From Planctomycetota bacterium (GTDB lineage Bacteria; Planctomycetota; UBA1135; UBA2386): 64,000 nucleotides of DNA. The notes under the pieces were generated by a model. It had not been told where the DNA came from. It ran no database searches and saw nothing but the letters and a program-made list of their open reading frames with translations. Made by a program: the position numbers and the translations under genes. Position 1 is the first letter of the stretch. The number at the start of each line of letters is the position of its first letter. Below, piece after piece: positions 6,934-50,602 of this stretch. The DNA lies in assembly GCA_965228735.1 (NCBI GenBank), contig OZ245838.1, forward strand, positions 2,784,001-2,848,000, given 5' to 3'.

Positions 6934-7742
6934 GAGCCTTCCCCCTCGCAGCGCGACCGCGCGGCCCGCGGCAGCCACATGAGCCGCCAATACTTCTTCC
7001 AGTCCGTGTAGGCCGCCATCGCCGCGACGACGAACCCGCGCCAACCGTCGAGGAAGCCGCGCTTGAGCAGCAGGCTCTTCACGAACACCGCAGGCGGTCG
7101 CACGAGCAGGTCCAACGGATTCGCCCGGCGCCCCTCCGCGGCGAGCGCCTGCGCCGCGATCCGCGAGAACGAGTCGATCGTGCGCCGGTGATCGCGAAAG
7201 CTGCGATAGCTCAGGTGTTCGATCCCGTCCGCGAGCCGCACCGCCGAAGCACCGCCGGGCAGCTGCACGCGATCGTGCGGGTTGCGCCCACCCCACTGCG
7301 CCTGCCGCCGGTCGAACAGCCGGATCTTGCGATCGGGCCAGAACAAACCGCGCCGCAACACCCGGCCGAGGTAGTGATTGAGCCGCGGCATCTCGTAGGC
7401 GACGCCCGACAAGCCGACAGCCGCGAGTTCGCGCACGCTTCGCTGCAGCGGCGGCGTCGCGCGTTCATCCGCATCCAGACAGAAGACCCAGTCGTGCGCG
7501 CACTGCTCGACGGCCCAGTGCTTCTGTTCGACGTAGCCCGGGAACGGCGCGTTCACGATCACCCGCGCGCCGTGCTCGGCGGCGAGCTCCTGCGTGCCGT
7601 CGTCGCTGCCGCTGTCAACGACGACGATCTCGTCGCAGAACGCCAGCGACTGCAGGCAGTCGACGATGCGATCCGCTTCTCGAAACGTGATGACGCAGCC
7701 GCTGATCGGCGTGCGCTCGGGCTCACGCGTTGGCGTCGCCAT
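6930..7742 (-). CDS. Glycosyltransferase family 2 (WaaE/KdtX-like)
   Basis: VVVDSGSDDGT, WVFCLDADE, PDRKIRLF and GFLDGWRG motifs. Confidence 0.92.
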   Translation of the reverse strand: MATPTREPERTPISGCVITFREADRIVDCLQSLAFCDEIVVVDSGSDDGTQELAAEHGARVIVNAPFPGYVEQKHWAVEQCAHDWVFCLDADERATPPLQRSVRELAAVGLSGVAYEMPRLNHYLGRVLRRGLFWPDRKIRLFDRRQAQWGGRNPHDRVQLPGGASAVRLADGIEHLSYRSFRDHRRTIDSFSRIAAQALAAEGRRANPLDLLVRPPAVFVKSLLLKRGFLDGWRGFVVAAMAAYTDWKKYWRLMWLPRAARSRCEGEGS

Positions 7743-8136
7743 CGGCCGCGAGTCCGTCGCCATCGACCGCGCTCGCATCGCCGCCGGCACCGGCCGACGC
7801 CTCGATGTCGCCGTCGTCGATGTCACCCGGCGGCGCGTCGGAGACCATGCGCGCGTGGATGCTTTGCAGGGCATCCTGGATCTCGATCAGACGCCGCCCC
7901 CAGTCCTGGAGGCGGCCATCCTGCTCGACCGCGTTGGCGGCCGCCTTCATCACCCGATGCCGCTCCTCGGCGGTGAGGCCGAGCTTCTCGTGCAGCAGGT
8001 ATTGGTTGCTGTAGCCGAGCACCTGGTTCCAGCGCAGCAATTCGAGCACCTGACCGAGCAGCTCGACGAGCTGCAGTTCGGCCTCGGTGAGGCCCATCTG
8101 CCGGGCCTTCTGCTTGCGCCTGCGATTGCTGACCAC
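7723..8136 (-). CDS. Hypothetical helical protein
   Basis: 137 aa ORF filling the gap between sodB and the GT2 gene, with host-like codon usage. Confidence 0.65.
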   Translation of the reverse strand: MVSNRRRKQKARQMGLTEAELQLVELLGQVLELLRWNQVLGYSNQYLLHEKLGLTAEERHRVMKAAANAVEQDGRLQDWGRRLIEIQDALQSIHARMVSDAPPGDIDDGDIEASAGAGGDASAVDGDGLAADGDANA

Positions 8137-11234: not shown

Positions 11235-12242
11235 CTAGTCGGGCCAGTGACAGCGCACGACGCGCCCGGCGTCGTCGTCCGCGACGAACAGCAGCGCGCC
11301 GACCGCGAACCGTTCGCGCAACCGCTCGATCACCTGCACCCCACGTTCTTCGCCGAGCACGAGCAGCGCGGTGCCGAGCGCGTCTGCGACCGCCGCGTTC
11401 GGACCGATCACCGAACAACTGACGACGCGGGACGTCGCACTCCGGCCGGTACGGGGGTCGAAGACGTGGTGCGCGCGCTCACCGTCCGCGGTGAACGCGT
11501 TGCGGTAGTTGCCGCTCATGCACATCGACTGCTCGCGCAGCGGCAGCACGGCGAACGGCTCGCGACGACCGAGCGCAGCCGCGGTCGGGTCCTCGACGCC
11601 GATCTGCCATGGCGAACCGGGCGCCTTCTCCCCGCGACACCAGATCTCGCCGGTCACGTCGAGGTAGAAGCTCGACAGGCCGAACGCGACGAGGCGGCGA
11701 TCGAGTTCGTCGAGGCACGCACCCGCGACGATGCCGTCGAGGTCGAGCTGGGTGCCAGCCGGGGCGCGCACCGTCCCATCCTCGACGGTGACCCGCGCGT
11801 AGCCGACGCGCGCGCTCGCGGCGTCGAGCTTCGCGGGGTCGAGCGGACTGCCGTTCGCCTTGGCCTCGCGGTAGAGCGCGAGCAGCGGCCCGACCGTAGG
11901 ATCGAATGCGCCGTCCGTCGCGGCGGCGAGTTCGAGCGCGAGCTCGAGCACGGCGCAGAAGCGCGGTGTCCCGTCATGCGGCTCTCCCGCGCGCAACGCG
12001 GCGTTGCATCGTTCGAGCTCCGAGTCGTCGCGCCACTTGGAGAACGCCGCGTCGAAGTCCGCGAGCGTCGCTTCGACGACGCGCTGCAACGCCGCCTGGT
12101 CGACATCGGCCACGTACTTCACCGTGTACGACGACCCCATCGTCGGGCCCGAGAACGAGCGCACCTCGGGCACGCGCTCACAGCCGGCGAACGGGATCGC
12201 GAGCAGGGCAGCCAGCGCGGTAGCTCGGCGGAGGATCGACAT
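11235..12242 (-). CDS. apbE: FAD:protein FMN transferase ApbE (lipoprotein)
   Basis: FAGC lipobox, GPTMGS, GAFDPTVGPL, SGNYRN, HHVFDPRTG and ADALGTA motifs. Confidence 0.93.
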   Translation of the reverse strand: MSILRRATALAALLAIPFAGCERVPEVRSFSGPTMGSSYTVKYVADVDQAALQRVVEATLADFDAAFSKWRDDSELERCNAALRAGEPHDGTPRFCAVLELALELAAATDGAFDPTVGPLLALYREAKANGSPLDPAKLDAASARVGYARVTVEDGTVRAPAGTQLDLDGIVAGACLDELDRRLVAFGLSSFYLDVTGEIWCRGEKAPGSPWQIGVEDPTAAALGRREPFAVLPLREQSMCMSGNYRNAFTADGERAHHVFDPRTGRSATSRVVSCSVIGPNAAVADALGTALLVLGEERGVQVIERLRERFAVGALLFVADDDAGRVVRCHWPD

Positions 12243-12434
12243 CGGCAGCCCGCGATCCTACGCCCGATCCGCCGCCCGGCCACCTTCGGCGTCGCGCCGG
12301 GCCGAGCCGTCCTCTGGAGCCGATCCGATCGGCGCTCGAGGTCGCACCACGCGACAAAACCGCTACCCTCGAGCGCTCTTCGTCTCCGCCGGCCACCAGG
12401 CCGCCTCCCCTCAGGCCCCGTCCGAACCTCCGCC

Positions 12435-13736
12435 ATGGCCAAGACCACCCGCCGAACGTTTCTAGCTACCTCGTCCACCGCCATCGTCACTGCCGGAACG
12501 GCCAGTTCGATGGCGTTCACCCCGCACATCGCCGGCAAGGACGAGATCCGCGTCGCGCTGATCGGCTGCGGCGGTCGCGGCACCGGCGCCGTCGCGCAGA
12601 TCATGAACACCAAGGGGCGCACCAAGCTCGTGGCGGTCGCCGACGCGTTCCACGACAAAGCGGCCAGCACAGTCGAGAACCTCAAGGGCCACGACGAGTC
12701 CAAGGTCGACGTCCCGCGCGAGCGCATCTTCTCGGGACTCGACGCGTTCCAGAAGGCGATCGACAGCGACTGCGATCTCGTCGTGATCGCGACGCCGCCC
12801 GGCTTCAAGCCCGTGCACTTCGACGCCGCGGTCAAGGCCGGCAAGCACGTCTTCATGGAGAAGCCGGTCGCGACCGACGCGCCGGGCGTGCGCCGCGTGC
12901 TCGCCGCGGTCGCCGAGTCCAAGAAGAAGAACCTCGCGGTCGCGATCGGCCTGCAGCGGCGACACGAGCCGAAGTACATGGAGACGATCCAGCGCGTGCA
13001 CGACGGCGCGATCGGGGACCTGATCCTCGCGCGCGTCTACTGGAACGGCGGCGGCATCTGGTATCGCAACCGCAAGCCGGAGATGACCGAGATGGAGTTC
13101 CAGTGCAACAACTGGTACCACTTCAACTGGATCTGCGGCGACCAGATCGTCGAGCAACACATCCACAACCTCGACGTCGGCTGCTGGGCGAAGGGCAGTT
13201 ACCCGGTCAAGTGCAACGGCATGGGCGGGCGCGAGATGCGCATGGGCGGCGACCGGACCAAGTCGCAGATCTTCGATCACACGTTCTGTGAGTACACGTT
13301 CGCGGACGGCACGAAGATGTACAGCCAGGGGCGCCACCTGCGCGGCAGTTGGACGAACGTGAGCGAGTCGCTGCACGGCACGCTCGGCACGTGCAACCCG
13401 GCCGGTCGCATCGAGGGCCCCAACAAGTGGCGCTTCGAGGGCAAGAGCCCGGGCGGCCACCAGCAGGAGCAGCACGACCTCATCGAGGCGCTGAGCCGCG
13501 GTGAGATCTACAATGAGGGCGAGTACGGCGCGATGTCGACGTTCTGCGCGATCCTCGGCCGCGAGGCGTGCTACTCCGGCAAGGAGATCCAGTGGGACGA
13601 CCTGCTGAAGCGCGGGCGCGACCTGTGCCCCGGGATCGACGGCTACCGGATGGATTCGGAGCCGCCGACCAAGCCGGACGAGAACGGCGAGTACCCGGTG
13701 CCGATCCCCGGCAAGTACAGCCCGTTCGCGAGCTGA
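12435..13736 (+). CDS. Tat-exported Gfo/Idh/MocA oxidoreductase
   Basis: TRRTFL Tat motif, LIGCGGRG, HVFMEKP and EQHIHNLD. Confidence 0.92.
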   Translation: MAKTTRRTFLATSSTAIVTAGTASSMAFTPHIAGKDEIRVALIGCGGRGTGAVAQIMNTKGRTKLVAVADAFHDKAASTVENLKGHDESKVDVPRERIFSGLDAFQKAIDSDCDLVVIATPPGFKPVHFDAAVKAGKHVFMEKPVATDAPGVRRVLAAVAESKKKNLAVAIGLQRRHEPKYMETIQRVHDGAIGDLILARVYWNGGGIWYRNRKPEMTEMEFQCNNWYHFNWICGDQIVEQHIHNLDVGCWAKGSYPVKCNGMGGREMRMGGDRTKSQIFDHTFCEYTFADGTKMYSQGRHLRGSWTNVSESLHGTLGTCNPAGRIEGPNKWRFEGKSPGGHQQEQHDLIEALSRGEIYNEGEYGAMSTFCAILGREACYSGKEIQWDDLLKRGRDLCPGIDGYRMDSEPPTKPDENGEYPVPIPGKYSPFAS

Positions 13737-36917: not shown

Positions 36918-37032
36918 CAGAGCTGCCCACATACGGCCGTCAGCTGGCATGTCACAGAGCTGCGCGGATTCGCCGCAGCCCCAGCCAGAGAATCACGTAG
37001 CACGCCGCGGCTCTCCTGGTCATTCCCTTCGC

Positions 37033-39645
37033 ATGGTGCTGCGAAACAAGACGATTGACCGCCGGTTTCGGCGGTTCTGCGAAACCGGTGACCCAGACGC
37101 CCTCGGCGACGTGTTCGACGCGACGGCCGGACGACTCATGAGGGTCGCGCTCTGGCTCGCCCGTAACCGGAACGACGCCGAGGACCTGCTCCAACGCACG
37201 TTCTTGCAGGCAATCGAAACGCGCGAGCAGTTTCGGATCGGCGAGCCCGTGCTGCCGTGGCTCATCGGGCTATTGGGCAACCAGACCCGCAAGCTACGTA
37301 GCGAGCGCGATCGGACGGCGGCGTCACGAGGTCTCGTCGACAAGGTCGATGACCCCGAGGTCGCAGTCGCTTCTCGCGAGCTCGCCGGTGCGGTGAAGGC
37401 CGTCAGTAATCGGCTCGGCGAGCCTTACCGCGATGTGCTGCTCCTGCACCTGGAGTCTGGGCTGAACGCCAAGGAGATCGCCGCACGACTCGATCGGCCG
37501 GCGGGGACGGTCCGAACGCAGTTGGTGCGCGCGCTGGAACTCCTGCGGCGACGACTGCCCAACGGGTTCGTCGCCGGCATGGTCGCCATCACGGCACCCG
37601 AGGTGTCGGCGTTGGCCGGCACGCGCGAAGAGATCGTGCGAGCCGCACATGCGGCGGTTCCTGCATCGGTCGCTTCCGTCGCGGCCGCCGGACTCGCTGT
37701 CGGAGGATCGATTGTGGCGAAGAAGTTGGCGGTAGCAGTATCGGCCCTCGCGCTCGTCGGTGGAATCACCATCTGGGCCATGGCCGCGGTGCGATCCGAT
37801 CCCGTCGCCGATTCAGCGGGAGAAAGTACGCGACTGGTGACGATGTCGGAGCCTTCCCGGAAGGAACCCACGCCGCACCGCCAGCTCGCCAGAACGCCAG
37901 GCGACAGCGGGAAGACGAAGTCAACGGACCACCAGCCCGAAACCTGGTCTCCGAACCTGATCGTCGTCGATGAGAGCGGGCAGCCCGTAGCAAACGCCGA
38001 GGTATCGATCTGGGCACCACGAAGGGTCGAGCCATCGCCGCGAGGAGGACGACGGTACGAGGGCCGGGAGAAGGCTGCCAGGGCGGAGCTCGTAACCGAC
38101 ACCCGTGGGCGGGCACGCGCCTCGGTCGACTTCGAAGCCTGTGTCGTGGCGGCGAACCGCGCCGACATCGGCCGAAGTCGCGAGCTCTGGCTGACCGCCA
38201 AGGGCGGGACGGCGACTCTCGTGCTCGAACCTCCGATTCGCCTACGTGGGCGCGTCGTCGACGAACGCGGAACGCCCGTGGCCGGGGCTTCGGTCGAAGT
38301 CAAGTGCGTGCCCCATACGGGCCTCTACCTCAATCGTGGCGCGCCTCCGACTCCGCCACCCGGAACCGTGGACCGCGACGGTCGTTTCTCGATCGACGTG
38401 TTCCGGGGCGCAAACTACACGTTGAGCGCGCGGCTACGCGAGCGACAGTCGTTTCGGGTGCGCGTCAGTGTCGACGATCGCGAACCGCTGCCCGTGACGC
38501 TTCGGTTCCCCGGAGCAACGAAGATCTCCGGCATCGTTGTCGACGGCTACGGACGACCGGTTCCGCGAGCCAAGGTCACCGCGTGGCGGATCCTGGCCCC
38601 CGACGATGATCACGCCGAACCCGAACGGGAGCGAGCTCTCGCCGATGCCGACGGCACCTTCGAGGTGATCGTCAGGTCGCACGCTCGCTACCAGTTGCTG
38701 GCGGCTGCGGACGGATACGCGACGAGTGCCCTTGCGAAGACCCAGACGACCCCGAAGGAACCGCACCCAAAGACGCAGCTCGTATTGCGGGAATTCGCAT
38801 CGATCACCGGGCGACTCGCAAGAGCCGACGGGCGTCCGCTGCCGGGCATCAAGGTCATCGCCAAACCCGAGTCGGGAGAGCCGTCGCCGCGGGCAGACAT
38901 CCCGAACCAAGAAGACCTCTTCCCACGAGTGAAGACATCCGTCACCGACGCTGACGGCAGGTTCGGGCTCCGGGTTCACCCGGACACCGCGTGGACGATC
39001 TCCGCCAGGCTGCAGCCCGGAAACTGGCGAATGGCCGTGCATCGACGCGGCGTCGCTCCCGGCACGACGAACCTGCTGATCACGGTGAGTGATGCTGAGT
39101 CACGGGGATGCGTAGTCGCCGGTCGTGTCCGGCGCCGCGACGGGCAGCCCGTAGGCTCGCTCCGGGTCGAAGTCGTCGATTACGATGACGACGGGAAACC
39201 CGTGACCTCGAGCCGCGTGCCGGCGAACGTCGAGGGCGACACGTTCACGTGCCCGCCGCTGCCGATCAACGCAACCTTCGCGCTACGGGTCCATGACGAA
39301 GACGACGAAGCCACGGCGCCCGCGATTCTCGGCCCTTTCGAAACCAACCGCGCCACGCTGACGCTCGACTGTTGGCTCGAGAATTGGGGACTACTGCCTG
39401 TCCGAGTGTTCAGTGCCGACGGAACACCAGCACTCGGCGTCGCTGTCTACCTTCGCCGCAGTACGCCATCGGGGTCCGATCACGTGGTCCGCGAGCCCGA
39501 CCTCGAGGGACGGGTGCCTGTTCACCGATGCATTCCAGGGCCACATCGGCTCTACGTGTCGCGCGATTCTCAGACCCTCGTCGAGCGCGATATCGAGGTG
39601 CAGAGCGGTGAGAACATGGAGGTCCTCGTCGAACTGCCGCGCTAA
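37033..39645 (+). CDS. ECF sigma factor fused to a TM helix and carboxypeptidase-regulatory-like beta domains
   Basis: DAEDLLQRTF (region 2) and EIAARLDRPAGTVRTQL (region 4), then a TM segment and repeated GRVVDERGTPVAGA modules. Confidence 0.9.
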   Translation: MVLRNKTIDRRFRRFCETGDPDALGDVFDATAGRLMRVALWLARNRNDAEDLLQRTFLQAIETREQFRIGEPVLPWLIGLLGNQTRKLRSERDRTAASRGLVDKVDDPEVAVASRELAGAVKAVSNRLGEPYRDVLLLHLESGLNAKEIAARLDRPAGTVRTQLVRALELLRRRLPNGFVAGMVAITAPEVSALAGTREEIVRAAHAAVPASVASVAAAGLAVGGSIVAKKLAVAVSALALVGGITIWAMAAVRSDPVADSAGESTRLVTMSEPSRKEPTPHRQLARTPGDSGKTKSTDHQPETWSPNLIVVDESGQPVANAEVSIWAPRRVEPSPRGGRRYEGREKAARAELVTDTRGRARASVDFEACVVAANRADIGRSRELWLTAKGGTATLVLEPPIRLRGRVVDERGTPVAGASVEVKCVPHTGLYLNRGAPPTPPPGTVDRDGRFSIDVFRGANYTLSARLRERQSFRVRVSVDDREPLPVTLRFPGATKISGIVVDGYGRPVPRAKVTAWRILAPDDDHAEPERERALADADGTFEVIVRSHARYQLLAAADGYATSALAKTQTTPKEPHPKTQLVLREFASITGRLARADGRPLPGIKVIAKPESGEPSPRADIPNQEDLFPRVKTSVTDADGRFGLRVHPDTAWTISARLQPGNWRMAVHRRGVAPGTTNLLITVSDAESRGCVVAGRVRRRDGQPVGSLRVEVVDYDDDGKPVTSSRVPANVEGDTFTCPPLPINATFALRVHDEDDEATAPAILGPFETNRATLTLDCWLENWGLLPVRVFSADGTPALGVAVYLRRSTPSGSDHVVREPDLEGRVPVHRCIPGPHRLYVSRDSQTLVERDIEVQSGENMEVLVELPR

Positions 39646-39811
39646 TGCCGCTCGTCGGTGACCAGCGGCCAGGGCGTACTGAAGCCGTGGAAGTACCCAT
39701 CGAGCAGGCTCGATCGGGTTCACCGGCCGCGCCATGACGCACGCCAGTAGAAAGGCCGACACAGCCGTTCAGCCACTAGACAGGCCGGCCGCAGCACAGG
39801 AGAGTGAGGTC

Positions 39812-40987
39812 ATGCGTCTCGTGGTATCGATGGCCTTTCTCATCACCGCGTCAGCGGCATCACAGACCTTCATCGTCGACGCCGCCAACGGACCAGGTGC
39901 TCACTACACCGACCTGCCAGCGGCCGTCGCCGCGGTGCCCGATGGCGCCGTGCTGCTCGTTCGTCCAGGCCACTACACGGGGTTCGCGGTCGCAGGAAAG
40001 GGACTCTCGATCCTCGGAGAAGGGGCGAAGATCACCGGCTCGATCGCGCTCACGAGCACGCAGTCGCACCAGGGGATCGCGATCCGTGGGTTGCGTTGGA
40101 CATCGGCCCAGCTCCTGACTGGGGACAAGCTCCTCAAGTTGGCGAACTGCGCTGGTCCTGTGCTCGTCGAGACACTCGAGCAACCCGCTAGAACGGGCCA
40201 CTGCTCGGCGTGCGCCGTGCCAACCGGAATACACGCGACGTCGTGCGCCCAGATCTGTGTACGCGATTGCCAAATCGGCTGCACGGCCCTGTTCGACTCG
40301 TGCACGGTCACGATCGACTCCTGCCAGATCCGCGGGGAACACTCATCCGCGCCGGGCAACAACTTCGGGCGCTCCGCCGTGGTGTTGTGGGGTTCCGACG
40401 CGCAGGTCTGCGGCGCCTCCGATCTCCGGGGAGGCGATGGTTGGCTCGGGGGACTCGGCACGGCGTTCCCGGGGGTGGGCATTCAGATCTTTGCTCCATC
40501 GACCGTCCGCCTCCTCGACGGCCGGCTCCAGGGAGGACGATGGGGCCCCACCCTGTTTGGACCGCTCGGATCCGCGAACTCGACCAACACTCGCATGTCG
40601 CCAAGGGTGAAGCTCGTTCAGGGCTCCACCTACACGGTCAGCCTGAGCCAAACGGCGATGCCCAGCCTGTCGGCCAACAGCACAGTGCCCGGCGGCGCGA
40701 TCCACGCTGCGACGCGGACGGAGGTTGGCGATCTTGTGGTCCTCGCGGTGGGGTTGCGTAGCGCCACCGCATCGGTCCCCGGATTCGTCGACGGATTCTG
40801 GCTCGATCCAGTTGCGCACGTGTTCCAGGCGATCGGCGTGCAACAAGCCAGCGCCCCAGTAACCGGCACGATCAACGTGCCGAACTGGCCTGGGTTGGTC
40901 GGGCAGCAGCTAGTCTGGCACGCGGCCTGCTTCGGCCCCGTCACGGGGCAGCAGAACAGCAACCCGGCGATCAGCATCGTGCACTAG
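39812..40987 (+). CDS. Secreted beta-helix-like protein with conserved C-terminal domain
   Basis: Signal peptide ending ASAASQ; FIVDAANGPG..DLPAAVAAVPDG..VRPGHY pectin-lyase-fold cap; GAGG SD. Confidence 0.78.
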   Translation: MRLVVSMAFLITASAASQTFIVDAANGPGAHYTDLPAAVAAVPDGAVLLVRPGHYTGFAVAGKGLSILGEGAKITGSIALTSTQSHQGIAIRGLRWTSAQLLTGDKLLKLANCAGPVLVETLEQPARTGHCSACAVPTGIHATSCAQICVRDCQIGCTALFDSCTVTIDSCQIRGEHSSAPGNNFGRSAVVLWGSDAQVCGASDLRGGDGWLGGLGTAFPGVGIQIFAPSTVRLLDGRLQGGRWGPTLFGPLGSANSTNTRMSPRVKLVQGSTYTVSLSQTAMPSLSANSTVPGGAIHAATRTEVGDLVVLAVGLRSATASVPGFVDGFWLDPVAHVFQAIGVQQASAPVTGTINVPNWPGLVGQQLVWHAACFGPVTGQQNSNPAISIVH

Positions 40988-41087: not shown

Positions 41088-41186
41088 TGGCGGGAGTGCA
41101 TGGGAATCGAACCCACCGAGAGCCGCGCCAGGCGACCCCCCACAGGTTTTGAAGACCAGGCCGAACACCAGCTCGGATGCACTCCC
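41088..41186 (-). tRNA. selC: tRNA-Sec (anticodon TCA)
   Basis: GGGAGTGC 8-bp acceptor stem, GGT-CTTCAAA-ACC anticodon arm, long variable arm, GGTTCGATTCC T arm, GCCA end. Confidence 0.95.
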
Positions 41187-41243
41187 GTGGGGTTTCTCGC
41201 TCGTTCTGGGGCAACAGCCGGTGCAACGGGCTAGAATTGCCTC

Positions 41244-42301
41244 ATGCCGAGGAGACCCCAGCGCTGGCCTTATGTGGAGAAGTCCGGCGCTGGGTGGCGC
41301 GCGAGCGTATCCATCGACGGCAAGCGATTCAAAGGACCCGTCCGCCGAGGCGATGGCGCGGATCGTCAGGCTCACGAGGACGCCGTGCGGCTTCTCGAAG
41401 AGCGCAAGTCCGAGGCACCGAGCGAGACGACCATCTCGACGGGCTTCGAGATCGTGAGCGCCGCCCTCGACAAGGAACCCGAGACGCGCCCCGCCACGCG
41501 GGACTTCTACCGGAACCACCTCCGGCCGTGGATCGAGGCCCTGGGCGCCGACCGGCTCTGGCGGGCCGTGACCTTCGACGAGGTGCAGCGGATCGTCGAC
41601 CGCTGGCGCGAGACCATCGGCCCGCAAACGATCCGCCACCGCCTCGGCGCAGCCACGCGCGTGGTGCGGCTCCTCGGGCTCCAGTCCAACCCGTTCGATC
41701 GCAACCGCCTCTCGCTACCGAGGCAGCGCAGACAGCGGCGTGAGGATCTGTCGTGGCCCGAGGTGCTCGACATGCTGCGCAAGCTGCGCGACACGAACCA
41801 GCGCACCGAACTGGTCGTGCTGGGGACGATCGCCGGGTTCGGGCTGCGCCGCGCTGAGTTCGCCCGGCTTCGGCGCCGGCACTTCGACCTGCGGAGCGGA
41901 TTTCTGCGCATCTCGGCAGACGTGGGCAAAACCGGCCCCCGCGATCTGCCGATCCCGAAGACGAAGGACACGCGCATCCTGATCGAGGATCTCCTCGACC
42001 TATAGCCCCCGGCCCCGCGGACGGCTTCGTCATTCCGGGCACCAGCGAGCGCCGAAGGATCGACTTCCTGCGGGCCGTGATCGAGCGCGTCCGTCACCTG
42101 ATCGAGAACACGGACGACCGGCTCCAGCTCCATGGCCTGCGCAGAGCGTTCGCGTCGCGCCTCGCCGCGACTTGCACGGTGCCCGTTGCGAGCGCCCTAC
42201 TCGGGCACAACCTCGAAGGCGTCGTCGGCCGCTACGTCCACGCGGACAAGAAGGCCCTAGCCGACGCGATGGACGCCCTGTGGCGCGACTTCGCGGACTA
42301 G
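41244..42301 (+). pseudogene. Tyrosine integrase split by a single-base frameshift near 42002
   Basis: GLRRAE and GKT lie in 41244-42005; HGLRRAF, LLGH and GRY lie in the -1 frame, open from 42002 to 42301. Confidence 0.85.
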
Positions 42302-42522: not shown

Positions 42523-43886
42523 GGGAGTGTGCGATGAACGGTGTATTCGCGTGACGGCTGGTGGGATCCTCTGACCCGTAGGGAGCCCACCGATGACCCC
42601 GAAGAAGAATGACCGCCACCGAATCCCGGACGAGCTGATCGACCAGCTCCTCGCCAACTACGAGAAGCCAGAAGACCTGACAGGAAAGGACGGCATCCTC
42701 AAGGAGCTGACGGCCCGGCTGCTCGGCCGAGCCCTCGAAGGCGAGATGACCGAGCACCTCGGCTACGAGAAGCACGCACCGCGTGCCGAGGGCACGAGCA
42801 ACGCGCGCAACGGATCACGCAGCAAGACGATCAAGGTCGAGGACGGCGAGCTCGAGATCGAGGTGCCGCGCGATCGCGACAGCACGTTCGAGCCCGAGAT
42901 CGTCAAGAAGCGCCAGAGACGCTTCGCGGGCTTCGACGAGAAGATCCTGGCGCTCTACGCCCGCGGCATGACCGTCCGCGACATCCAGGGCCACCTGGAG
43001 GAGCTGTACGGCGTCGAGGTCTCGCCATCGCTGATCTCGAGCGCCACGTCGGCGGTCCACGAAGACGTCCTGGCCTGGCAGAGCCGGCCGCTCGAGCCGG
43101 TCTACCCGATCGTCTTCCTCGATGCGCTCGTCGTGAAGGTGCGCGACGAAAGCGTCGTCCGAAACAAGTCGGTTTACCTGGCGATCGGCGTCACGCTCGA
43201 CGGCCGCCGCGAAGTCCTCGGGATCTGGATCGAGCAGACGGAGGGCGCCAAGTTCTGGCTGAAGGTCATGAACGAGCTGAAGACGCGGGGCGTCCAGGAC
43301 ATCCTGATTGCGTGCTGCGATGGCCTGAAGGGCTTCCCGGACGCGATCGAGCACGTGTTCCCGCAGGCCACCGTGCAGACCTGCATCGTGCACATGATCC
43401 GGAACTCGCTGCGCTTCGTCAGCTACAAGGATCGCAAGGCCGTCGCCAAGGACCTCAAGCCGATCTACACGGCGGCCAACCGTGAAGCCGCCGAGGCAGC
43501 GCTGGATGCCTTCGACAAGAAGTGGGGCCGCCGCTACGAGATGATCACCTCGTCCTGGCGAGCGAACTGGGAGCGTGTCGTGCCGTTCCTCGACTTCCCG
43601 CCCGAGGTCCGGCGCGTGATCTACACGACCAACCAGATCGAGGCGCTCAACTCGAGCCTGCGCAAGCTGCTGCAGTACCGCGGCCACTTCCCGGACGACA
43701 AGTCCGTCACCAAGCTGCTCTACCTCGCGCTGCGTCGCTTCGAGAAGAAGTGGACGCGTGCGCTCTGGAATTGGAGCGCCGTCCTCGGGCAGCTCGCTAT
43801 CTTCTTTCAAGGCAGGATACCTGCCCTGTAACCGTGACCTCACTCCGCCAGCTGGTCGCCGTTTACACCGTTAGCTGCACACTCCC
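42523..43886 (+). mobile_element. IS256-family element 1
   Basis: Terminal IRs gggagtgtgcgatgaacggtgta and tacaccgttagctgcacactccc; no target duplication. Confidence 0.92.
42593..43831 (+). CDS. IS256-family transposase
   Basis: RNG, VPRDR, VFLDAL, CDGLKG, QTCIVH and YTTNQIE motifs. Confidence 0.96.
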   Translation: MTPKKNDRHRIPDELIDQLLANYEKPEDLTGKDGILKELTARLLGRALEGEMTEHLGYEKHAPRAEGTSNARNGSRSKTIKVEDGELEIEVPRDRDSTFEPEIVKKRQRRFAGFDEKILALYARGMTVRDIQGHLEELYGVEVSPSLISSATSAVHEDVLAWQSRPLEPVYPIVFLDALVVKVRDESVVRNKSVYLAIGVTLDGRREVLGIWIEQTEGAKFWLKVMNELKTRGVQDILIACCDGLKGFPDAIEHVFPQATVQTCIVHMIRNSLRFVSYKDRKAVAKDLKPIYTAANREAAEAALDAFDKKWGRRYEMITSSWRANWERVVPFLDFPPEVRRVIYTTNQIEALNSSLRKLLQYRGHFPDDKSVTKLLYLALRRFEKKWTRALWNWSAVLGQLAIFFQGRIPAL

Positions 43887-43903: not shown

Positions 43904-45328
43904 GGTAGTGCAGCATGCGTTCTGTAAACCGCCCGAGGCAGCTTGACGCAGTCGGCGGTGGTCGTCGCGGTCGGTCTGGGCGCTGCACCCTGGGTGCAGT
44001 GGCCAGGCCGACCGCGACGACCACCGCCGGCGCGGACGGATGCTTCAAGTCGGCGAGTCACGACGCTCAGCTTTTGTTAACCACAACGAAAGCAGAACGA
44101 AGTGACCCACCAATCCGAAAGTAGCACGCTCGACACCGTCTTGGAATCCATCGCAACGCAGGGTCTGGGAGGGATCGCGGACGCGATCCGCGTCCTCGTG
44201 AACGAGGCCATGAAGATCGAGCGATCCGCGTTCCTGGGCGCCGGTCCAAACGAGCGTACCGAGTCACGACGGGGCTACGCCAACGGCTTCAAGCCGAAGA
44301 CCGTGGCGACTCGCGTCGGCGCGATCGAGTTCGCCGTCCCGCAGGTCCGCGAGGCCGTCGACGGCGAACGCTTCTATCCGACGGCACTCGAACGCGGGAT
44401 TCGCTCGGAGCGCGCCCTGAAGCTCGCGGTCGCCGAGATGTACGTCCAGGGCGTCTCGACCCGCAAGGTCGCCGCGATCACCGAGGAGCTCTGCGGAGTA
44501 CAGGTGTCGTCCCAGCAGGTCTCCCGGGCCGCCGCGGCACTCGACGACGAGCTGCAGCAGTGGCGGATGCGCGAGCTCGGCCGGTGCCGCTACCTGGTCC
44601 TCGATGCCCGCTACGAAAAGGTCCGGCACGCCGGCTCCGTCATGAGCGCCGCCGTCCTGATCGCGACGGGCGTCGATGATGCAGGCCATCGCTCGGTCCT
44701 CGGCGTCAGCGTGTCGCGCTCGGAAGCCGAGGTCCACTGGCGCGACTTCCTCGACAGCCTGCGTGAACGTGGCCTGCACGGGCTCGGACTCATCGTCAGT
44801 GACGACCACTCTGGCCTCCGCCAAGCTTTGGCGGCGAGCTTTCCCGGAGTCGCTTGGCAACGCTGCCAGTTCCACCTGCAACGCAACGCCGCTCCACGAG
44901 TGCCGACCGTCTCGTTGCGCCCGTCGATCGCTCGTGGACTTCGTGCGGTCTTCAACGCTCCAGACCGACCTGAGGCCGAACGGCTTCTTGATAGGCTTCT
45001 GGAGGATCACGCGGAAACCGCTCCCGACTTTGTCCGGTGGGCTCGCGACAACGTCCCCGACGGCTTCGCTGTCTTCGCGATCCCGGCGACGCACCGTCGC
45101 TGCCTTCGCACGACCAACATGCTCGAGCGCCTCAACAAGGAGCTCCTGCGCCGCACCCGCGTTGCGACGCTCTTCCCCAACGACGCCTCTCTTCTCCGGC
45201 TCGCCACCGCGGTCCTCATGGAGATCAGCGAGGACTGGGTGACTGGCCGTCGCTATCTCTCCATGGACGCTGAGTGAAATGATTCGCCGACTATGGGCTC
45301 GCTCTTACAGAACGAATGTTGCTTTGCC
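43904..45328 (+). mobile_element. IS256-family element 2 with 8-bp target duplication
   Basis: IRs ggtagtgcagcatgcgttctgtaa and ttacagaacgaatgttgctttgcc; ccacgaac at 43896-43903 and 45329-45336. Confidence 0.92.
44102..45277 (+). CDS. IS256-family transposase
   Basis: EMYVQGVSTRKV, LDARYEKVR, SDDHSGL, WQRCQFH and RTTNMLERLN motifs. Confidence 0.96.
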   Translation: MTHQSESSTLDTVLESIATQGLGGIADAIRVLVNEAMKIERSAFLGAGPNERTESRRGYANGFKPKTVATRVGAIEFAVPQVREAVDGERFYPTALERGIRSERALKLAVAEMYVQGVSTRKVAAITEELCGVQVSSQQVSRAAAALDDELQQWRMRELGRCRYLVLDARYEKVRHAGSVMSAAVLIATGVDDAGHRSVLGVSVSRSEAEVHWRDFLDSLRERGLHGLGLIVSDDHSGLRQALAASFPGVAWQRCQFHLQRNAAPRVPTVSLRPSIARGLRAVFNAPDRPEAERLLDRLLEDHAETAPDFVRWARDNVPDGFAVFAIPATHRRCLRTTNMLERLNKELLRRTRVATLFPNDASLLRLATAVLMEISEDWVTGRRYLSMDAE

Positions 45329-45434
45329 CCACGAACGCCGAGGAATTCGCGTGACCGCACGCATCGCTACAGATAGCAACTTCACCCAGGGAGAGGAATC
45401 GCACGTCGCGAAACCAACCTGGAAAGGAGAGGCG

Positions 45435-45791
45435 ATGCACTACGGACAGTGGCTCATCAACGACGGCGATGCGACGACGAAAGTCTTCACGCCATGGTTC
45501 CCGCGCGGTGGCGACAACGCAATCATGACGTATGAGATCATTACGTCGCTCGGCGGGACCTTCACCGTGGACGTGGTCCACAAGAACAAGGACGACACCG
45601 GGAACGGCTCCATCCTAACCCCATCGAGCGCATTCACCGTGGTGTCTGGAACAAGCTTCTACGAAGGAGAGTTTGCCAAGCTCAAAGAGCTTGTGCGATT
45701 CCAGGTCAGCCTGGTGTCCGGGACGACAGCAATCCAAGCGGTGCTCTACCGAATGCTAGCCCCAACTTGGTTCAACGACGTCGGCGCGTAG
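45435..45791 (+). CDS. Hypothetical 118-aa beta-rich protein (FPRGGD paralog A)
   Basis: Strong AAAGGAG SD; clear similarity to the next ORF. Confidence 0.85.
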   Translation: MHYGQWLINDGDATTKVFTPWFPRGGDNAIMTYEIITSLGGTFTVDVVHKNKDDTGNGSILTPSSAFTVVSGTSFYEGEFAKLKELVRFQVSLVSGTTAIQAVLYRMLAPTWFNDVGA

Positions 45792-45823
45792 CTTGCCACA
45801 ACAACAGTCGAAAAGGAGAAGTC

Positions 45824-46174
45824 ATGAACATCCCAGGTCGCAGAATCGAAGAGAACGAGATAATCACCACCGAGCCTTTCCCCCGCGGCGGAGATGGTAT
45901 GTTTCTTAGGGCACAGATGATCGATCGTCTGGACTCAACCGGGAACCTCGAAGTTGCCGTGTTCACGCGCAATACGGAGGAGGACTGGCCGGGATTGGCT
46001 ACCGCAACAATGAACATGACGCTCACGAATGGTGCGGTGTCTGAGATTCAAGTGGAAGGCTTGAAGGAGCAGATCCGTGTCAGGGTGACCGGGCCGACTG
46101 GCACGGGCACTGCCGCCGTCGTCCGCATCTTCCCGCCGCTTTTCTACGACGCGGCTATCGGAAACCTACCGTAG
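45824..46174 (+). CDS. Hypothetical 116-aa beta-rich protein (FPRGGD paralog B)
   Basis: Strong AAAAGGAG SD; shares FPRGGD and LKExxR with the previous ORF. Confidence 0.85.
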   Translation: MNIPGRRIEENEIITTEPFPRGGDGMFLRAQMIDRLDSTGNLEVAVFTRNTEEDWPGLATATMNMTLTNGAVSEIQVEGLKEQIRVRVTGPTGTGTAAVVRIFPPLFYDAAIGNLP

Positions 46175-46252
46175 CTCAGCGAGGCATAGCTTCCTGAAAC
46201 CGGGGCCCGTCATATCCGCGCACCCTCCCTGAGACTCCACCCCTCCAAAGCA

Positions 46253-47425
46253 ATGCTCCCAGATTACAGCGGCACTCTGTTTGATCCTCCGGCCGAACAA
46301 GGCTGTGGATGCTCAGGGGGAGGTTGCGGCGGTGACTGTGGATGCGGAGGATCCTGTGGCGGGTGCAACGGCGGCTGCACGGGCGGGTGCAGCGGCGGAG
46401 CTGGGAGCAGCGCCCCTTTTTCGGAACCAGCCTTCGAGCCCGCGAACAGTCATATCCCGATTGACTTCCTAGGCGCCTGGTCAAGCGGTGGCTTGGGGAG
46501 TTCGGGGCCGCAGTTACTGGGCAGTGCCGCGCGCCAGGTAGACATCCCGAATCCCGGCGAAGGTGAACGCGGACAAATCACCAAGGAGGAGCCCGAGCCC
46601 CGCATTTGCCCCAAGGAATGCGAGGATCTATTCCCGCGCGTAGAGAAGGCCTGCACCCCGGATTGCTTCGTGCGAGAATGCATGACAATTGCTCACATCT
46701 ACGCTGAGTGCATTCGATCGGCGGGCGTCGACCCGAAGATGTGCCCTCAAGTCGACTGCGGGGACGACGAGGAGTGCCACGAGCTCCCTGAATGCAAGCC
46801 GCTGTATCGAGCTTATCTCGCGTCACAGGAGGACCTCCTTCAACCCGGCGGCTTTGCTCGCCTCGCGGCTCGCCACCCCAAAGGCTACGGTTCACCGTGG
46901 AGCAAGTATAAAGAATGCTGCCTGAAGAACTGCAAAAATGTGAAAGGCAAAAAGGGGCGCAGCAAGAAATCTGCCCGATCTTGCCGCTACGGAGGAGCCA
47001 ACATTACGTGTAACTTCTCGATTCCGGGGCCGACGGAAAGTCCAATACCGACGTTCTGCGAGTGCACATGGAAGCTAGATTGCGTATGCTGCAAGACAAG
47101 CGACTCCGAAGGAATGAAATGCGTTCGTGGGTGCGTGCAATGCCTGAAGTCTGTTGGCGCCGATGTAGACGCACATAATGACTGCTTCGAGAGTTGCCGT
47201 GAAGACGGCAAGTGGACCGACCAGGACGAGCAAGAATTCCGGCGAGTCGCGGACGATTGCTTGGTATGCAACGATCCCTACTGTGAGAGCGCAATGAGGG
47301 CAGGGATCCCGTTTAGAACATGGGAGATCATGAAGCGTATGGGCAATTGCGTCTACCGCGAGACTGGATCGGGGCCGATCTTTGAGGCGGCGGAGGGATG
47401 CAGTGACGAAGATCGAAATGGCTGA
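46253..47425 (+). CDS. Cysteine-rich protein (about 39 Cys in 390 aa) with a Gly/Cys N-terminal tract
   Basis: Long ORF in lower-GC DNA; GCGCSGGGCGGDCGCGGSCGGCNGGCTGGC leader; no signal peptide. Confidence 0.82.
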   Translation: MLPDYSGTLFDPPAEQGCGCSGGGCGGDCGCGGSCGGCNGGCTGGCSGGAGSSAPFSEPAFEPANSHIPIDFLGAWSSGGLGSSGPQLLGSAARQVDIPNPGEGERGQITKEEPEPRICPKECEDLFPRVEKACTPDCFVRECMTIAHIYAECIRSAGVDPKMCPQVDCGDDEECHELPECKPLYRAYLASQEDLLQPGGFARLAARHPKGYGSPWSKYKECCLKNCKNVKGKKGRSKKSARSCRYGGANITCNFSIPGPTESPIPTFCECTWKLDCVCCKTSDSEGMKCVRGCVQCLKSVGADVDAHNDCFESCREDGKWTDQDEQEFRRVADDCLVCNDPYCESAMRAGIPFRTWEIMKRMGNCVYRETGSGPIFEAAEGCSDEDRNG

Positions 47426-47452
47426 GGCAAGGATGACGAGGAGAGACGCTGA

Positions 47453-47839
47453 TTGAGATCGCAGAGGCGGCACTATGTCGCGGCCCTCTCTTTGGCTGCC
47501 ATTTGCGGACTTGCTCTCCTTCTCTGGACGCAAAGACCCAGCGTGGACGCGATTGCCGAGAAGTGGAGGACAGCGGACGCTGAAGTCGGATCAGTTCTTT
47601 TCCAGAAACACTGCATCAACTGCCATACTGGGTTCGCACCTCGATTGAGGGGAGCAATCAATCGCGCTCGCGAATCGAACGTGGGAATTAGGTATTTGAT
47701 TGAGTCGATCGTCTACCCAGAGAGCGTCGTGGTGCCACAGCCAACAATGAAGAGGTCGTTGCCCATGCCATACTTTGACTTCAGCGAACGGGAGATTGCG
47801 AACCTCGTTCGATACATGATCGAGAGTCACGGGCGATAA
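47453..47839 (+). CDS. Membrane-anchored monoheme cytochrome c-like protein
   Basis: TTG start after GAGGAG; TM helix; G..LF..HCINCH, YLIESIVYP, MP distal ligand and EIANLVRYM. Confidence 0.78.
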   Translation: MRSQRRHYVAALSLAAICGLALLLWTQRPSVDAIAEKWRTADAEVGSVLFQKHCINCHTGFAPRLRGAINRARESNVGIRYLIESIVYPESVVVPQPTMKRSLPMPYFDFSEREIANLVRYMIESHGR

Positions 47840-47961
47840 GGACACTGCCGTCGCAGCCCCAGCTCAAGAAACTCTGCCTCCGCCGCTGCGATCCGCTCCG
47901 CACGCGAACAGCTCTGCTTGCCGGTTGAGGGAATCTCGACGCCTACGCCCGCTCGCGCTCC

Positions 47962-48123
47962 TCATCCTCGAAAATCGGCCACGACGACTTCCCACAACCG
48001 TCGCACTGCCTCACGAACGTGAGCCTCGGCGGGGCGAGCGTAGAGGCCCGTGATCCCTGCCGCAGTCGTAGCCTGATGGCCTAGCAAGTGCGCGACGACT
48101 GGGATCGGCACGGGCGGATCGAC
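47962..48123 (-). pseudogene. C-terminal remnant of a second tyrosine recombinase
   Basis: Manual translation VDPPVPIPVVAHLLGHQATTAAGITGLYARPAEAHVREAVRRLW...stop contains LLGH and the catalytic Tyr. Confidence 0.7.
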
Positions 48124-48125
48124 CG

Positions 48126-48944
48126 TTACCGCAATTGCGGCGGATCGATCTTGCCCAACAATGCCGCCACCGCGCGGAAGTAGGCGCCGACGAACGGGAG
48201 ACGCATGGCGAACCGGCCAACCGCGTCCGCAAGGATGGGACTAATCGTCGTGACCGTGATCCAGGTGCGAACGGCGAGGACATGCAATCGCCCGGGGCGC
48301 TTCTTGCGCATCTCGCTAACGTGTCGCCGCAGGTCGGCCGCGGACATCATCAACATCTCGCCCGTCTCGCCGGTCGAAAACCATGCGAACCAGTCGAGGA
48401 CGGCGCCAACCGTCGCGCGCCGACGAGGCGATCGACGCTCCGTCGTGCCTCGCCCTCGCACCAAGGTGAGCGCCAAGAGCCCGGCGACGCCGAGCATGGT
48501 CAATTGGATCCACTCCAGCCAACCAGGCGCCGAGACCGCGACCTGGTCAAACGAGGTCTTGCCGAGGTGCAACTCGATCCCTGAGTGAAATACCCCATCG
48601 TGGATCTTGACGCCCTCCCATCGCGTGCCCGCGCTCAGCTCGCGAGCGATCCGCTGCGCTTCGTCTCCTGGCATGTCATAGACTCGCGAGTAGCCGAACT
48701 CGCTCCAGATCGGGTGGCTGGTGTGGAGCAGATGCTCGTCAACCAACCGCGAACAGTATTCGCGATCGGCAGGGATGACCTCGGCGCCTCCACGCCGCTG
48801 GAAGTCCTCGATTGCTACCGCAAGCTCGTCGATCATCTCCTCGCGAGTCGGGGCCCGATGCCCGCCCGGCGCCGACGGAACGAAGCTCATCAAGCACGCG
48901 CAGAACACCGACGCGACCAAGATCATCAGCTTGCGACGACTCAT
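48126..48944 (-). CDS. Hypothetical membrane protein coupled to the PadR gene
   Basis: ATG overlaps the PadR TGA; N-terminal signal/TM and internal TMs. Confidence 0.7.
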   Translation of the reverse strand: MSRRKLMILVASVFCACLMSFVPSAPGGHRAPTREEMIDELAVAIEDFQRRGGAEVIPADREYCSRLVDEHLLHTSHPIWSEFGYSRVYDMPGDEAQRIARELSAGTRWEGVKIHDGVFHSGIELHLGKTSFDQVAVSAPGWLEWIQLTMLGVAGLLALTLVRGRGTTERRSPRRRATVGAVLDWFAWFSTGETGEMLMMSAADLRRHVSEMRKKRPGRLHVLAVRTWITVTTISPILADAVGRFAMRLPFVGAYFRAVAALLGKIDPPQLR

Positions 48945-49240
48945 GCCAGCCTCCCGCGCAGTCCGAACTTCGCGAGTTGCTGGTATCTCTCTCGCGCGAG
49001 CGCCAGAGCCTCAACACCAGCGCCGGTGATCCTGAACCACCGCAGGCGCCCGTCTTCGTCCTCGTCGTCGCGCATGGCTACCCACCCGGCTTCCCGCATC
49101 CGGCGGAACGAGGTGTAGAGCGTGCCGAACGAGATGGAGCGGCCGGTTTCCTTCTCGAACAGCTTGCCGACCTCGCGGCCAGTCCGCTCCGTGACGGTCA
49201 ACGCCAGCAGTTGGAACTCGGTGTCGGTCGGGAGACCCAT
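48941..49240 (-). CDS. PadR-family transcriptional regulator
   Basis: EFQLLAL..ERTGREV..SISFGTLYTSFRRM..GWV..RWFRITGAG winged-helix pattern. Confidence 0.88.
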   Translation of the reverse strand: MGLPTDTEFQLLALTVTERTGREVGKLFEKETGRSISFGTLYTSFRRMREAGWVAMRDDEDEDGRLRWFRITGAGVEALALARERYQQLAKFGLRGRLA

Positions 49241-49246
49241 GCCGAT

Positions 49247-49275
49247 AGTGTGCAGTCGTATACTATACGTGTCAA
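49247..49275 (-). promoter_or_regulatory. Sigma70 promoter with a palindromic operator in the spacer
   Basis: TTGACA-17 nt-CACACT, 6 nt before the PadR ATG; palindrome CGTATA-G-TATACG at 49257-49269. Confidence 0.7.
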
Positions 49276-49341
49276 GACAGCAGCGGCGAGCACCCACTCG
49301 CCCACTGGTTTTCACACTGGTGCTCCACAGGTGTCCTGGAG

Positions 49342-49386
49342 CTGGGGCAACCTGGGGCAACAGGCTGGGGCAACGGGTGGTGCAAC
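49342..49386. repeat. CTGGGGCAAC direct repeats (candidate integrase arm sites)
   Basis: Copies at 49342, 49352 and 49365 plus a degenerate ggtgcaac; an identical copy lies at 41206-41215. Confidence 0.75.
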
Positions 49387-49525
49387 ACTCCGAAATCACG
49401 CCTCAGCAGCCCACCGAGTCACTTCCCAGCGGCATCGCCACTTCCGCTACAAGCCGTTCAACAATATCGGCTTACGACTCCAGTGGAAGCCCTGCGAAAG
49501 ACGTGATCCGGCGGCGTTCTCTGGC

Positions 49526-49724
49526 TTTGAAGACCAGGCCGAACACCAGCTCGGATGCACTCCCGTGGGGTATCTCGCTCGCTCTTGGCAACAGCCGCTG
49601 CAACGGACTGGACCTGCCTCGTGCCGAGGAGATCCCAGCGCTGACCCGATCTTGCAAGGGTCCGGCGCTGGGTGGCGCGCGAGCGTATCCAGCGGCTGCA
49701 GGCGATGCAAAGGACCGGTTCGCC
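49526..49724. repeat. Displaced 5' half of selC plus a decayed copy of the integrase 5' end
   Basis: Homologous to 41148-41346; the first 46 bp are identical; ATG is changed to GTG and TGG to TGA. Confidence 0.88.
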
Positions 49725-50602
49725 CGGACGAAGTTGCGAATCAGCGGCCGATCGGCCGGTCGAAGTGTCGCGCCCCCCGGCCCGAAACGCTGCGCGGCAG
49801 GAAGCGGAGTTTCTTTGGGCGCCGTGCAACCGTCGGCTCGTTGCTGTCGAAGAAATGGTCGAGAAGGCCGCGCCGGATCAAATACCGACTTTCTTTGAAA
49901 CATAGTCCGGGCGCGGCCTTCTCCCATTTCCCGTTCGAACCCCGGACGACGGAAACCCTCCCCTGGCGCAGCCGCTCCCTCCGACCCGCAGCGGAGAGGT
50001 GTCCGAGGCGAGCGCATCTCGGTCGGGCAACACCGCGGAGCGTCACCCGGAGTCGAGCCGACTCACGACTCGGCCCCGCCGACCACCGCGCTGCTCGCCC
50101 GCCGACGTTCACGGTGTGAAACGCGACCATCGCGCGGACGGCGCTACGCGCGCGGGCCGCCGTTCCGTTGTCGCCACGAGATTCGTCCGGATGAATAAAA
50201 GGCGACAGGCCCGCCGCTTGCCTCGACGGCGGACAAAGACTCGGGGGAGAAAGGGAAAGAAGGAGGAGTCGAGTCCCAACAACCCGGAACGGGATGTTCT
50301 GTCGCAGTGTTCGATCGCACGCCGAGCGGCGCATAGGCCCACGCGCCCGACCGAATCCACCGGGGTCTCCGGGCGTACGCACCTGTCACGCCGACCGGTC
50401 GCCATCCTCAGTACGTTCTCGCCTTAAGAGAAAACTCCCATCGCAGCGGCCCGTTGCGGGCCCACGAAACGGCGGGTCCAGGAACGAGACCAGACCACCG
50501 ACGGACCGGTCTCATCCCGAGAACGCGACGATCAAGCGAGTGGCGAAACTGGTCGACGTCTTCTGCAGGGCGCGGAAGCCAGAGCCGCGCACCATCGTTT
50601 CG

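Follow-up and report, generated by a model that had tools for sequence, protein, structure and literature searches.

A jelly-roll gene pair heads a candidate polymorphic toxin-immunity cassette in Planctomycetota

Polymorphic toxins such as the Rhs, contact-dependent inhibition (CDI), MafAB-MafI, MuF and TANFOR proteins combine a conserved N-terminal part with a tip that is switched at a fixed motif, are directly followed by a cognate variable gene, and reside on mobile islands (features set out in excerpts of PMC3482391 and of PMC12419801, section 29). Their classes are defined by the mode of packaging and delivery. In this report, we describe a cassette that resembles them in each of these respects. 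It lies in a 64,000-nucleotide stretch of a Planctomycetota genome (assembly GCA_965228735.1, contig OZ245838.1, positions 2,784,001 to 2,848,000; hereafter the window), and consists of two small genes, A and B, a variable cysteine-rich gene and a membrane-anchored gene. Comparison of cassettes across the phylum establishes the gene order, the paralogy of the first genes, a tracking of the leader of the variable gene with the type of jelly-roll gene before it, and a coupled, variable, membrane-anchored gene behind it. The cassette carries the full genetic signature of a polymorphic toxin and the trafficking hallmark of none of the delivery classes scanned, and its sequence is best read as that of a new polymorphic toxin-immunity system. 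We found no description of such a cassette in open-access text; loci of this kind might be listed in the neighbourhood tables of PMC12419801.

A and B are real genes and paralogs. A sequence-only reading of the window had proposed tandem paralogs here, and this held: both open reading frames (ORFs) are where it had placed them, with all eight motifs that it quoted, and the proteins share 28% identity across 100 aa (E 6e-8). Their local alignment score of 79 was reached by 0 of 2000 shuffles (best 57), and profile-profile comparison gave a probability of 96.8% (E 2.6e-10). The two genes are separated by 32 nt, each with an AGGAG ribosome-binding site ahead of it. A longer frame for A (170 aa) extends into the end of the preceding insertion sequence (IS, 43904-45328); the extra part being IS-end sequence, we rejected it and place the start of A at 45435. 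As had been claimed, both proteins are free of Cys, and since their highest 19-residue hydropathy is only 1.27 (A) and 1.13 (B), they have no transmembrane (TM) or signal stretch. The sequence 45301-49555 is matched by four public runs, in a single contig and with zero differences, and among close relatives of the A-type gene synonymous codon differences exceed non-synonymous ones in 6/6 pairs (12-26 vs 8-15). The window genome (G000) holds no family member besides A and B. Neither A and B themselves nor their profiles could be assigned to a family in searches against Pfam, PHROGs, NCBIfam and PDB sequences, and neither a sigma-70 promoter nor a terminator consensus was found within 45250-48200.

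The AlphaFold2 model of A predicts an all-beta jelly roll of nine strands (predicted local distance difference test, pLDDT, 87), and supports the jelly-roll-like fold suggested earlier for the pair; A alone was folded, the fold of B being taken from homology. In the structural comparison that the sequence-only reading had called for, jelly rolls are the leading matches, the nearest solved folds being about tied between PirA, GOLD, Ena pilins and XepA/YomS, and Foldseek returned nothing at E<=1e-3 for A from PDB or from the viral models of BFVD. In one family protein, P0085 (248 aa), two family domains are naturally fused, and each of them folds in its model. BFVD matches of that two-domain model were discarded (root-mean-square deviation at least 10, TM score at most 0.44), as they reflect no more than repeated beta-sandwiches.

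Profile searches define a family of 646 representatives at 50% identity, the best 150 of the 646 being listed. Members occur in 34/151 related genomes and in 32/401 genomes of the phylum, across many families, and a single genome can have as many as 16 matches. We defined 86 cassettes, in the best-scoring loci only, a few of them frameshifted pieces. In the 78 that lie away from locus ends, the number of family genes is one (16 cassettes), two (37), three (21) or four (4). A FastTree phylogeny of 153 members separates an A clade (25) from a B clade (22), whose genes come in either order, and one three-gene cassette type forms separate clades for positions 1, 2 and 3 (9, 11 and 13 members). The best match of a family member is its cassette-mate in only 17 of 131 cases, so the paralogs within a cassette are not recent duplicates. 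These conserved, separate clades, together with the P0085 fusion, give genetic support to the hetero-oligomer that had been proposed for A and B. Conserved residues concentrate in WFPRGGD, K50, E85/R88, R106 and the C-terminal PxWFD; Cys is absent from 112/161 members, and cassette guanine-plus-cytosine (GC) content is below that of the flanks in 68/69 loci.

The decisive context, overlooked in the sequence-only reading, is the variable Cys-rich gene downstream of the jelly-roll array, together with the membrane gene that comes after it. The first encodes 250-570 aa, with a Cys/Gly leader of about 80-130 aa and a variable C-terminus. By a fixed rule, such a gene follows 54/80 cassettes compared to 36/600 control ORF ends (a further 6 cassettes, close to locus ends, were left out; among the 26 that fail the rule are some broken by an IS and some poorer in Cys). 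In an independent set of 34 metagenome loci not used for the rule, 13 cassettes had sufficient downstream sequence; the gene is present behind 10 of these, and the remaining three downstream proteins are likewise long and Cys-rich. Six loci show the exchange directly: their jelly rolls are 84-100% and their leaders 72-99% identical, yet they carry five unrelated tips, the switch falling directly after DYDG[EQ]IW. These loci show a polymorphic architecture, with a swappable tip behind a conserved leader. Leader type tracks jelly-roll type (median 124.5 bits, against 50 overall), while tip type barely does (64), the bit-score pairs in this comparison not being independent. The tips form 56 clusters in 73 ORFs, mostly without Pfam match; those recognised match DUF4329, Ntox44 (7 ORFs by clustering), DUF3750 (three), DUF6973, AMOP, YfiM and astacin-like models, and HExxH and lipocone-like tips occur as well. 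We take DUF3750 to be a papain-like fold and DUF4329 to be JAB-like. The tip of the window toxin has no Pfam match; it recurs in P0163 and L031, on three different leaders overall, and a search of plasmids and of 301 genomes of the phylum yielded no additional relative. Pfam and NCBIfam scans of 72 and 60 downstream ORFs gave no Rhs, FHA, WXG, LXG, PAAR, MuF or HINT hallmark.

The next gene after the toxin is closely coupled and variable, and begins with a hydrophobic or lipoprotein-like segment in 45/61 cases compared to 15/78 controls, as expected for an envelope-facing immunity protein. In L031, the same tip as in the window is likewise followed by an N-terminally hydrophobic, CxxCH cytochrome c-like protein (L031:10195-10641). 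A haem protein as immunity factor, as these two loci would have it, would be unusual. In L027 (at 11806), L053, L060, L104 and L116, the gene in the immunity position encodes a large secreted protein (330-700 aa), for example with carboxypeptidase-regulatory repeats.

How might such a cassette work? The explanation that we favour, at a probability of about 0.57, is that A and B co-assemble, bind the leader, exit with the toxin and bind the envelope of a target cell, the membrane partner protecting kin. The genes would be co-expressed, in many loci under an adjacent gene resembling an extracytoplasmic function (ECF) sigma factor (absent in the window, where an IS stands there), and their products would form an obligate hetero-assembly of A and B, plus a third subunit C where present. 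The Cys-rich leader would dock on this jelly-roll assembly, for which a small hetero-ring or an AB-type binding moiety is our first guess. Release would take place without a signal peptide and with no need of a type VI secretion system (T6SS) or an extracellular contractile injection system (eCIS), probably by lysis or in vesicles. The assembly would then attach to the envelope of the target, much as PirA or a carbohydrate-binding module (CBM) would, and the tip would act mostly at the envelope or in the periplasm, where the membrane-anchored partner would block the toxin in kin.

Several observations weigh against this explanation. PirA, GOLD, Ena, CBM and protease domains match the fold of A about equally well and indicate no function, and the P0085 model has no defined domain packing (predicted TM score, pTM, 0.48; second half without alignment depth). 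Hetero-assembly is not universal, because 16/78 cassettes hold a single family gene. Covariation of leader and jelly roll would also be expected from linkage alone. The matches to Ntox44, DUF4329, YfiM and one DUF3750 fall under the curated cut-off, and 65 of the 72 downstream proteins scanned (one pick being a transposase) have no Pfam match, the window tip included. The abundance of Cys implies that the toxins end up in an oxidising environment, and having no signal peptide, they would need some way of getting there; we identified no export route. Moreover, the T6SS protein TssC is commoner in carriers (14/34) than in non-carriers (25/117), and most genomes being incomplete metagenome assemblies, an absent machine means 'not found'.

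A bolder form of the idea is that the jelly rolls build, by self-assembly, a virus-like shell that packages the toxin, or an ENA-like fibre that is tipped with it, in either case through the Cys/Gly, possibly metal-binding, leader. We consider it possible, at roughly the odds of two coins both falling heads. Like A and B, the ENA pilins (Ena1A/B/C, Ena2A, Ena3A) are jelly rolls with tandem paralogs, and the ENA tip is Cys-docked. However, N-terminal connectors join the ENA subunits by disulfide bonds, while A and B have neither Cys nor such an extension; nor do they match DUF3992 in Pfam, and their cargo would be a variable enzyme-like tip instead of collagen. If the shell or fibre were real, it would amount to a toxin particle of four to five genes, with no secretion machine required and spread phylum-wide, derived from a small jelly-roll stock common to phage cement and single-jelly-roll capsid proteins.

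It is unlikely, in our judgement, that A and B are instead cytoplasmic chaperones or adaptors, which would pass the toxin to an existing machine (the T6SS or another exporter) without travelling along. The excess of TssC in carriers speaks for them, as does the presence in G000 of a T6SS locus with TssC and Hcp, accompanied by another, more divergent match to TssC (G000:C1:3573115-3575037 and 360313-360819); G000 has no match to an eCIS tube. The rarity of signal-like N-termini, found in only 2/158 jelly-roll proteins and 1/64 toxins, also agrees with this view. Against it, an eCIS-type tube is found in just 5 carriers, all within the 14 with TssC, and neither PF05943 nor PF06841 was found in the other 20/34, some of them 91-94% complete and among them G005 (92% complete, 16 matches), G009, G036 and G070; an injection machine thus does not seem to be required. 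Genes for PAAR, VgrG, Hcp, Rhs or transporters do not recur in the 6 kb around cassettes, and jelly rolls are typical for binding and structural subunits.

The variable gene pair could also be a ligand and its receptor, serving kin identity or adhesion on a jelly-roll scaffold, with no toxin or immunity protein involved. Tips that are disulfide-rich and mostly without assignment would suit this reading, as would the partner genes, many of which encode lipoproteins or membrane proteins (in one case a cytochrome c), and the adhesion-associated name of the AMOP domain. We regard it as doubtful, since the recognisable tips (Ntox44, DUF4329, DUF3750, HExxH, lipocone-like) belong to the enzymatic repertoire of conflict systems, and polymorphic toxins are recognised, according to PMC12419801 (section 29), by a cleanly exchanged C-terminus that is followed by a cognate gene.

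Viral links fare worse. A and B could be Bbp16-like cement or decoration proteins that clip onto the capsids of phages, whether passing or resident, and load the toxin, a hitch-hiking comparable to that of MuF toxins. The Bbp16 cement protein of phage BPP-1 (PF21190, 3j4u) is a jelly roll of similar size and the nearest named family by language-model features, and the ESM Atlas places A and B near viral hypothetical clusters, some with Bbp16, though these are language-model leads only. On the other side, A and B have no Pfam match to PF21190, comparison with four of its members by hhalign gave probabilities of 0.9% and 4.3% (a shallow, 4-sequence template), and Bbp16 ranks 27 among structural matches. 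No family relative was found in IMG/VR with three alignments, nor in GenBank phages by tblastn with A; PHROGs gave weak single matches for 4/97 family members, and G000 has no match to PF05065, the single capsid family searched. We hold the cement explanation to be improbable. The capsid, spike or tube origin offered by the sequence-only reading, which would make A and B two single-jelly-roll genes of a degenerate provirus with a Helvetiavirae-like arrangement of two major capsid proteins, is very improbable, as no packaging ATPase, terminase, portal, replication or other capsid gene recurs near the 86 cassettes, the constant neighbour is a Cys-rich variable gene, and the genes are intact and conserved over many families of the phylum. 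A present-day viral role of A and B is thus not supported; a distant common ancestry with phage cement or single-jelly-roll proteins is possible.

In the window, A and B lie within an 8.4-kb low-GC island with a direct repeat of about 220 bp at both ends (Table 1). The island holds a split integrase, two IS256-family elements, A, B, the toxin, the cytochrome c-like gene and an opposite-strand PadR pair; the latter (48126-49240, minus strand) is a PadR-like regulator, with a likely start at 49240, overlapping a gene for a 272-aa membrane protein, and has no second copy in the genome. The repeats D1-D3 are 83-94% identical, with a spacing of 8378. They contain the 5' half of tRNA-SeC and the first codons of the divergent integrase, so that the element seems to take the place of the tRNA 5' end. 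A remnant of the integrase N-terminus is preserved in the right copy, which suggests successive integrations.

Table 1. Features of the island in the window, and duplicated cassettes in other loci
Feature	Position	Strand	Remarks
tRNA-SeC, island integration site	41088..41186	-	
Island repeat, left copy	41145..41364	.	5' half of tRNA-SeC and integrase start
Tyrosine integrase, two ORFs	41244..42301 (41244-42005, 42077-42301)	+	
IS256-family element	42523..43861	+	transposase 42593-43831; 11 genome copies
IS256-family element	43904..45328	+	transposase 44102-45277; 9 genome copies
Jelly-roll subunit A (predicted)	45435..45791	+	118 aa, 'A' clade
Jelly-roll subunit B (predicted)	45824..46174	+	116 aa, 'IPG/B' clade; fold by homology to A
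Putative polymorphic toxin	46253..47425	+	390 aa, 39 Cys, no signal peptide
Leader of the putative toxin	about 46253-46480	+	LPxG-like motif, Cys/Gly run, IPxDxxGxW-like junction
Putative immunity protein	47453..47839	+	N-terminal TM helix and CxxCH cytochrome c-like domain
Island repeat, right copy	49523..49742	.	
Tandem-duplicated cassettes	L023:3377-4114 and 7351-8088; L031:8158-8973 and 11693-12508; L049; L063; L066; L068		

The IS element directly ahead of A (43904..45328) occupies the place that an ECF-sigma-like gene takes in many other cassettes; no remnant of a sigma gene was recognisable around the two elements of the window. Six of eight such upstream ORFs, picked by hand, match sigma-70 models, below the cut-off, and a profile matches 17/77 cassettes (10 of these being profile seeds), so that the gene is frequent. 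Outside the island, an ORF at 36949-39645 fuses an ECF sigma factor to several carboxypeptidase-regulatory-like domains (898 aa) and is followed by a secreted 417-aa protein without Pfam match (39734-40987). The 6 kb around cassettes have no recurrent genes other than transposases, integrases, a ParB/methylase module, kinases and the Cys-rich genes. The ParB-like/methylase module comes with small ORFs beside cassettes in L042, L074, L075, L014, L015 and L078, which suggests that the cassettes have one common family of integrative elements as their vehicles. Whole cassettes are also duplicated in tandem, jelly rolls included; their cores are near-identical and their tips differ, which sets them apart from the orphan-tip arrays known from Rhs and CDI loci.

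Should the jelly-roll pair prove to be the carrier, the cassette would be a minimal new route of interbacterial toxin delivery in a little-studied phylum. The leader junction offers a precise handle for harvesting toxin and immunity domains by the dozen, so far without assignment, and A and B are small, Cys-free and cytoplasmically made, so that assembly and leader binding are directly amenable to study.

Among known systems (compared here on the basis of excerpts from PMC11362473, PMC5742833, PMC8812541, PMC13730344, PMC6834076, PMC3863775, PMC7738311 and PMC7073777), PirA/PirB also pairs a toxin with a jelly-roll partner, and A is structurally similar to PirA (7fcn, 3x0t). The identity is only 3-12%, however, with no link at the sequence level, PirA is one gene instead of two to three paralogs, and unlike PirB, a Cry-like pore former, the genes downstream of the jelly rolls encode unrelated Cys-rich proteins with swappable tips. 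XepA and YomS (6i56, 6i5o) sit in lysis cassettes of Bacillus prophages, whereas neither holin nor endolysin genes recur near the cassettes described here, and the sequences do not match. With polymorphic toxins, the cassette appears to have some tip families in common (Ntox44, DUF4329, lipocone-like). It differs from the known ones in that its toxin is short (250-570 aa) and bears no known trafficking domain or signal peptide, that an ECF-sigma-like gene often stands upstream, and that its constant partners are one to four small jelly-roll genes.
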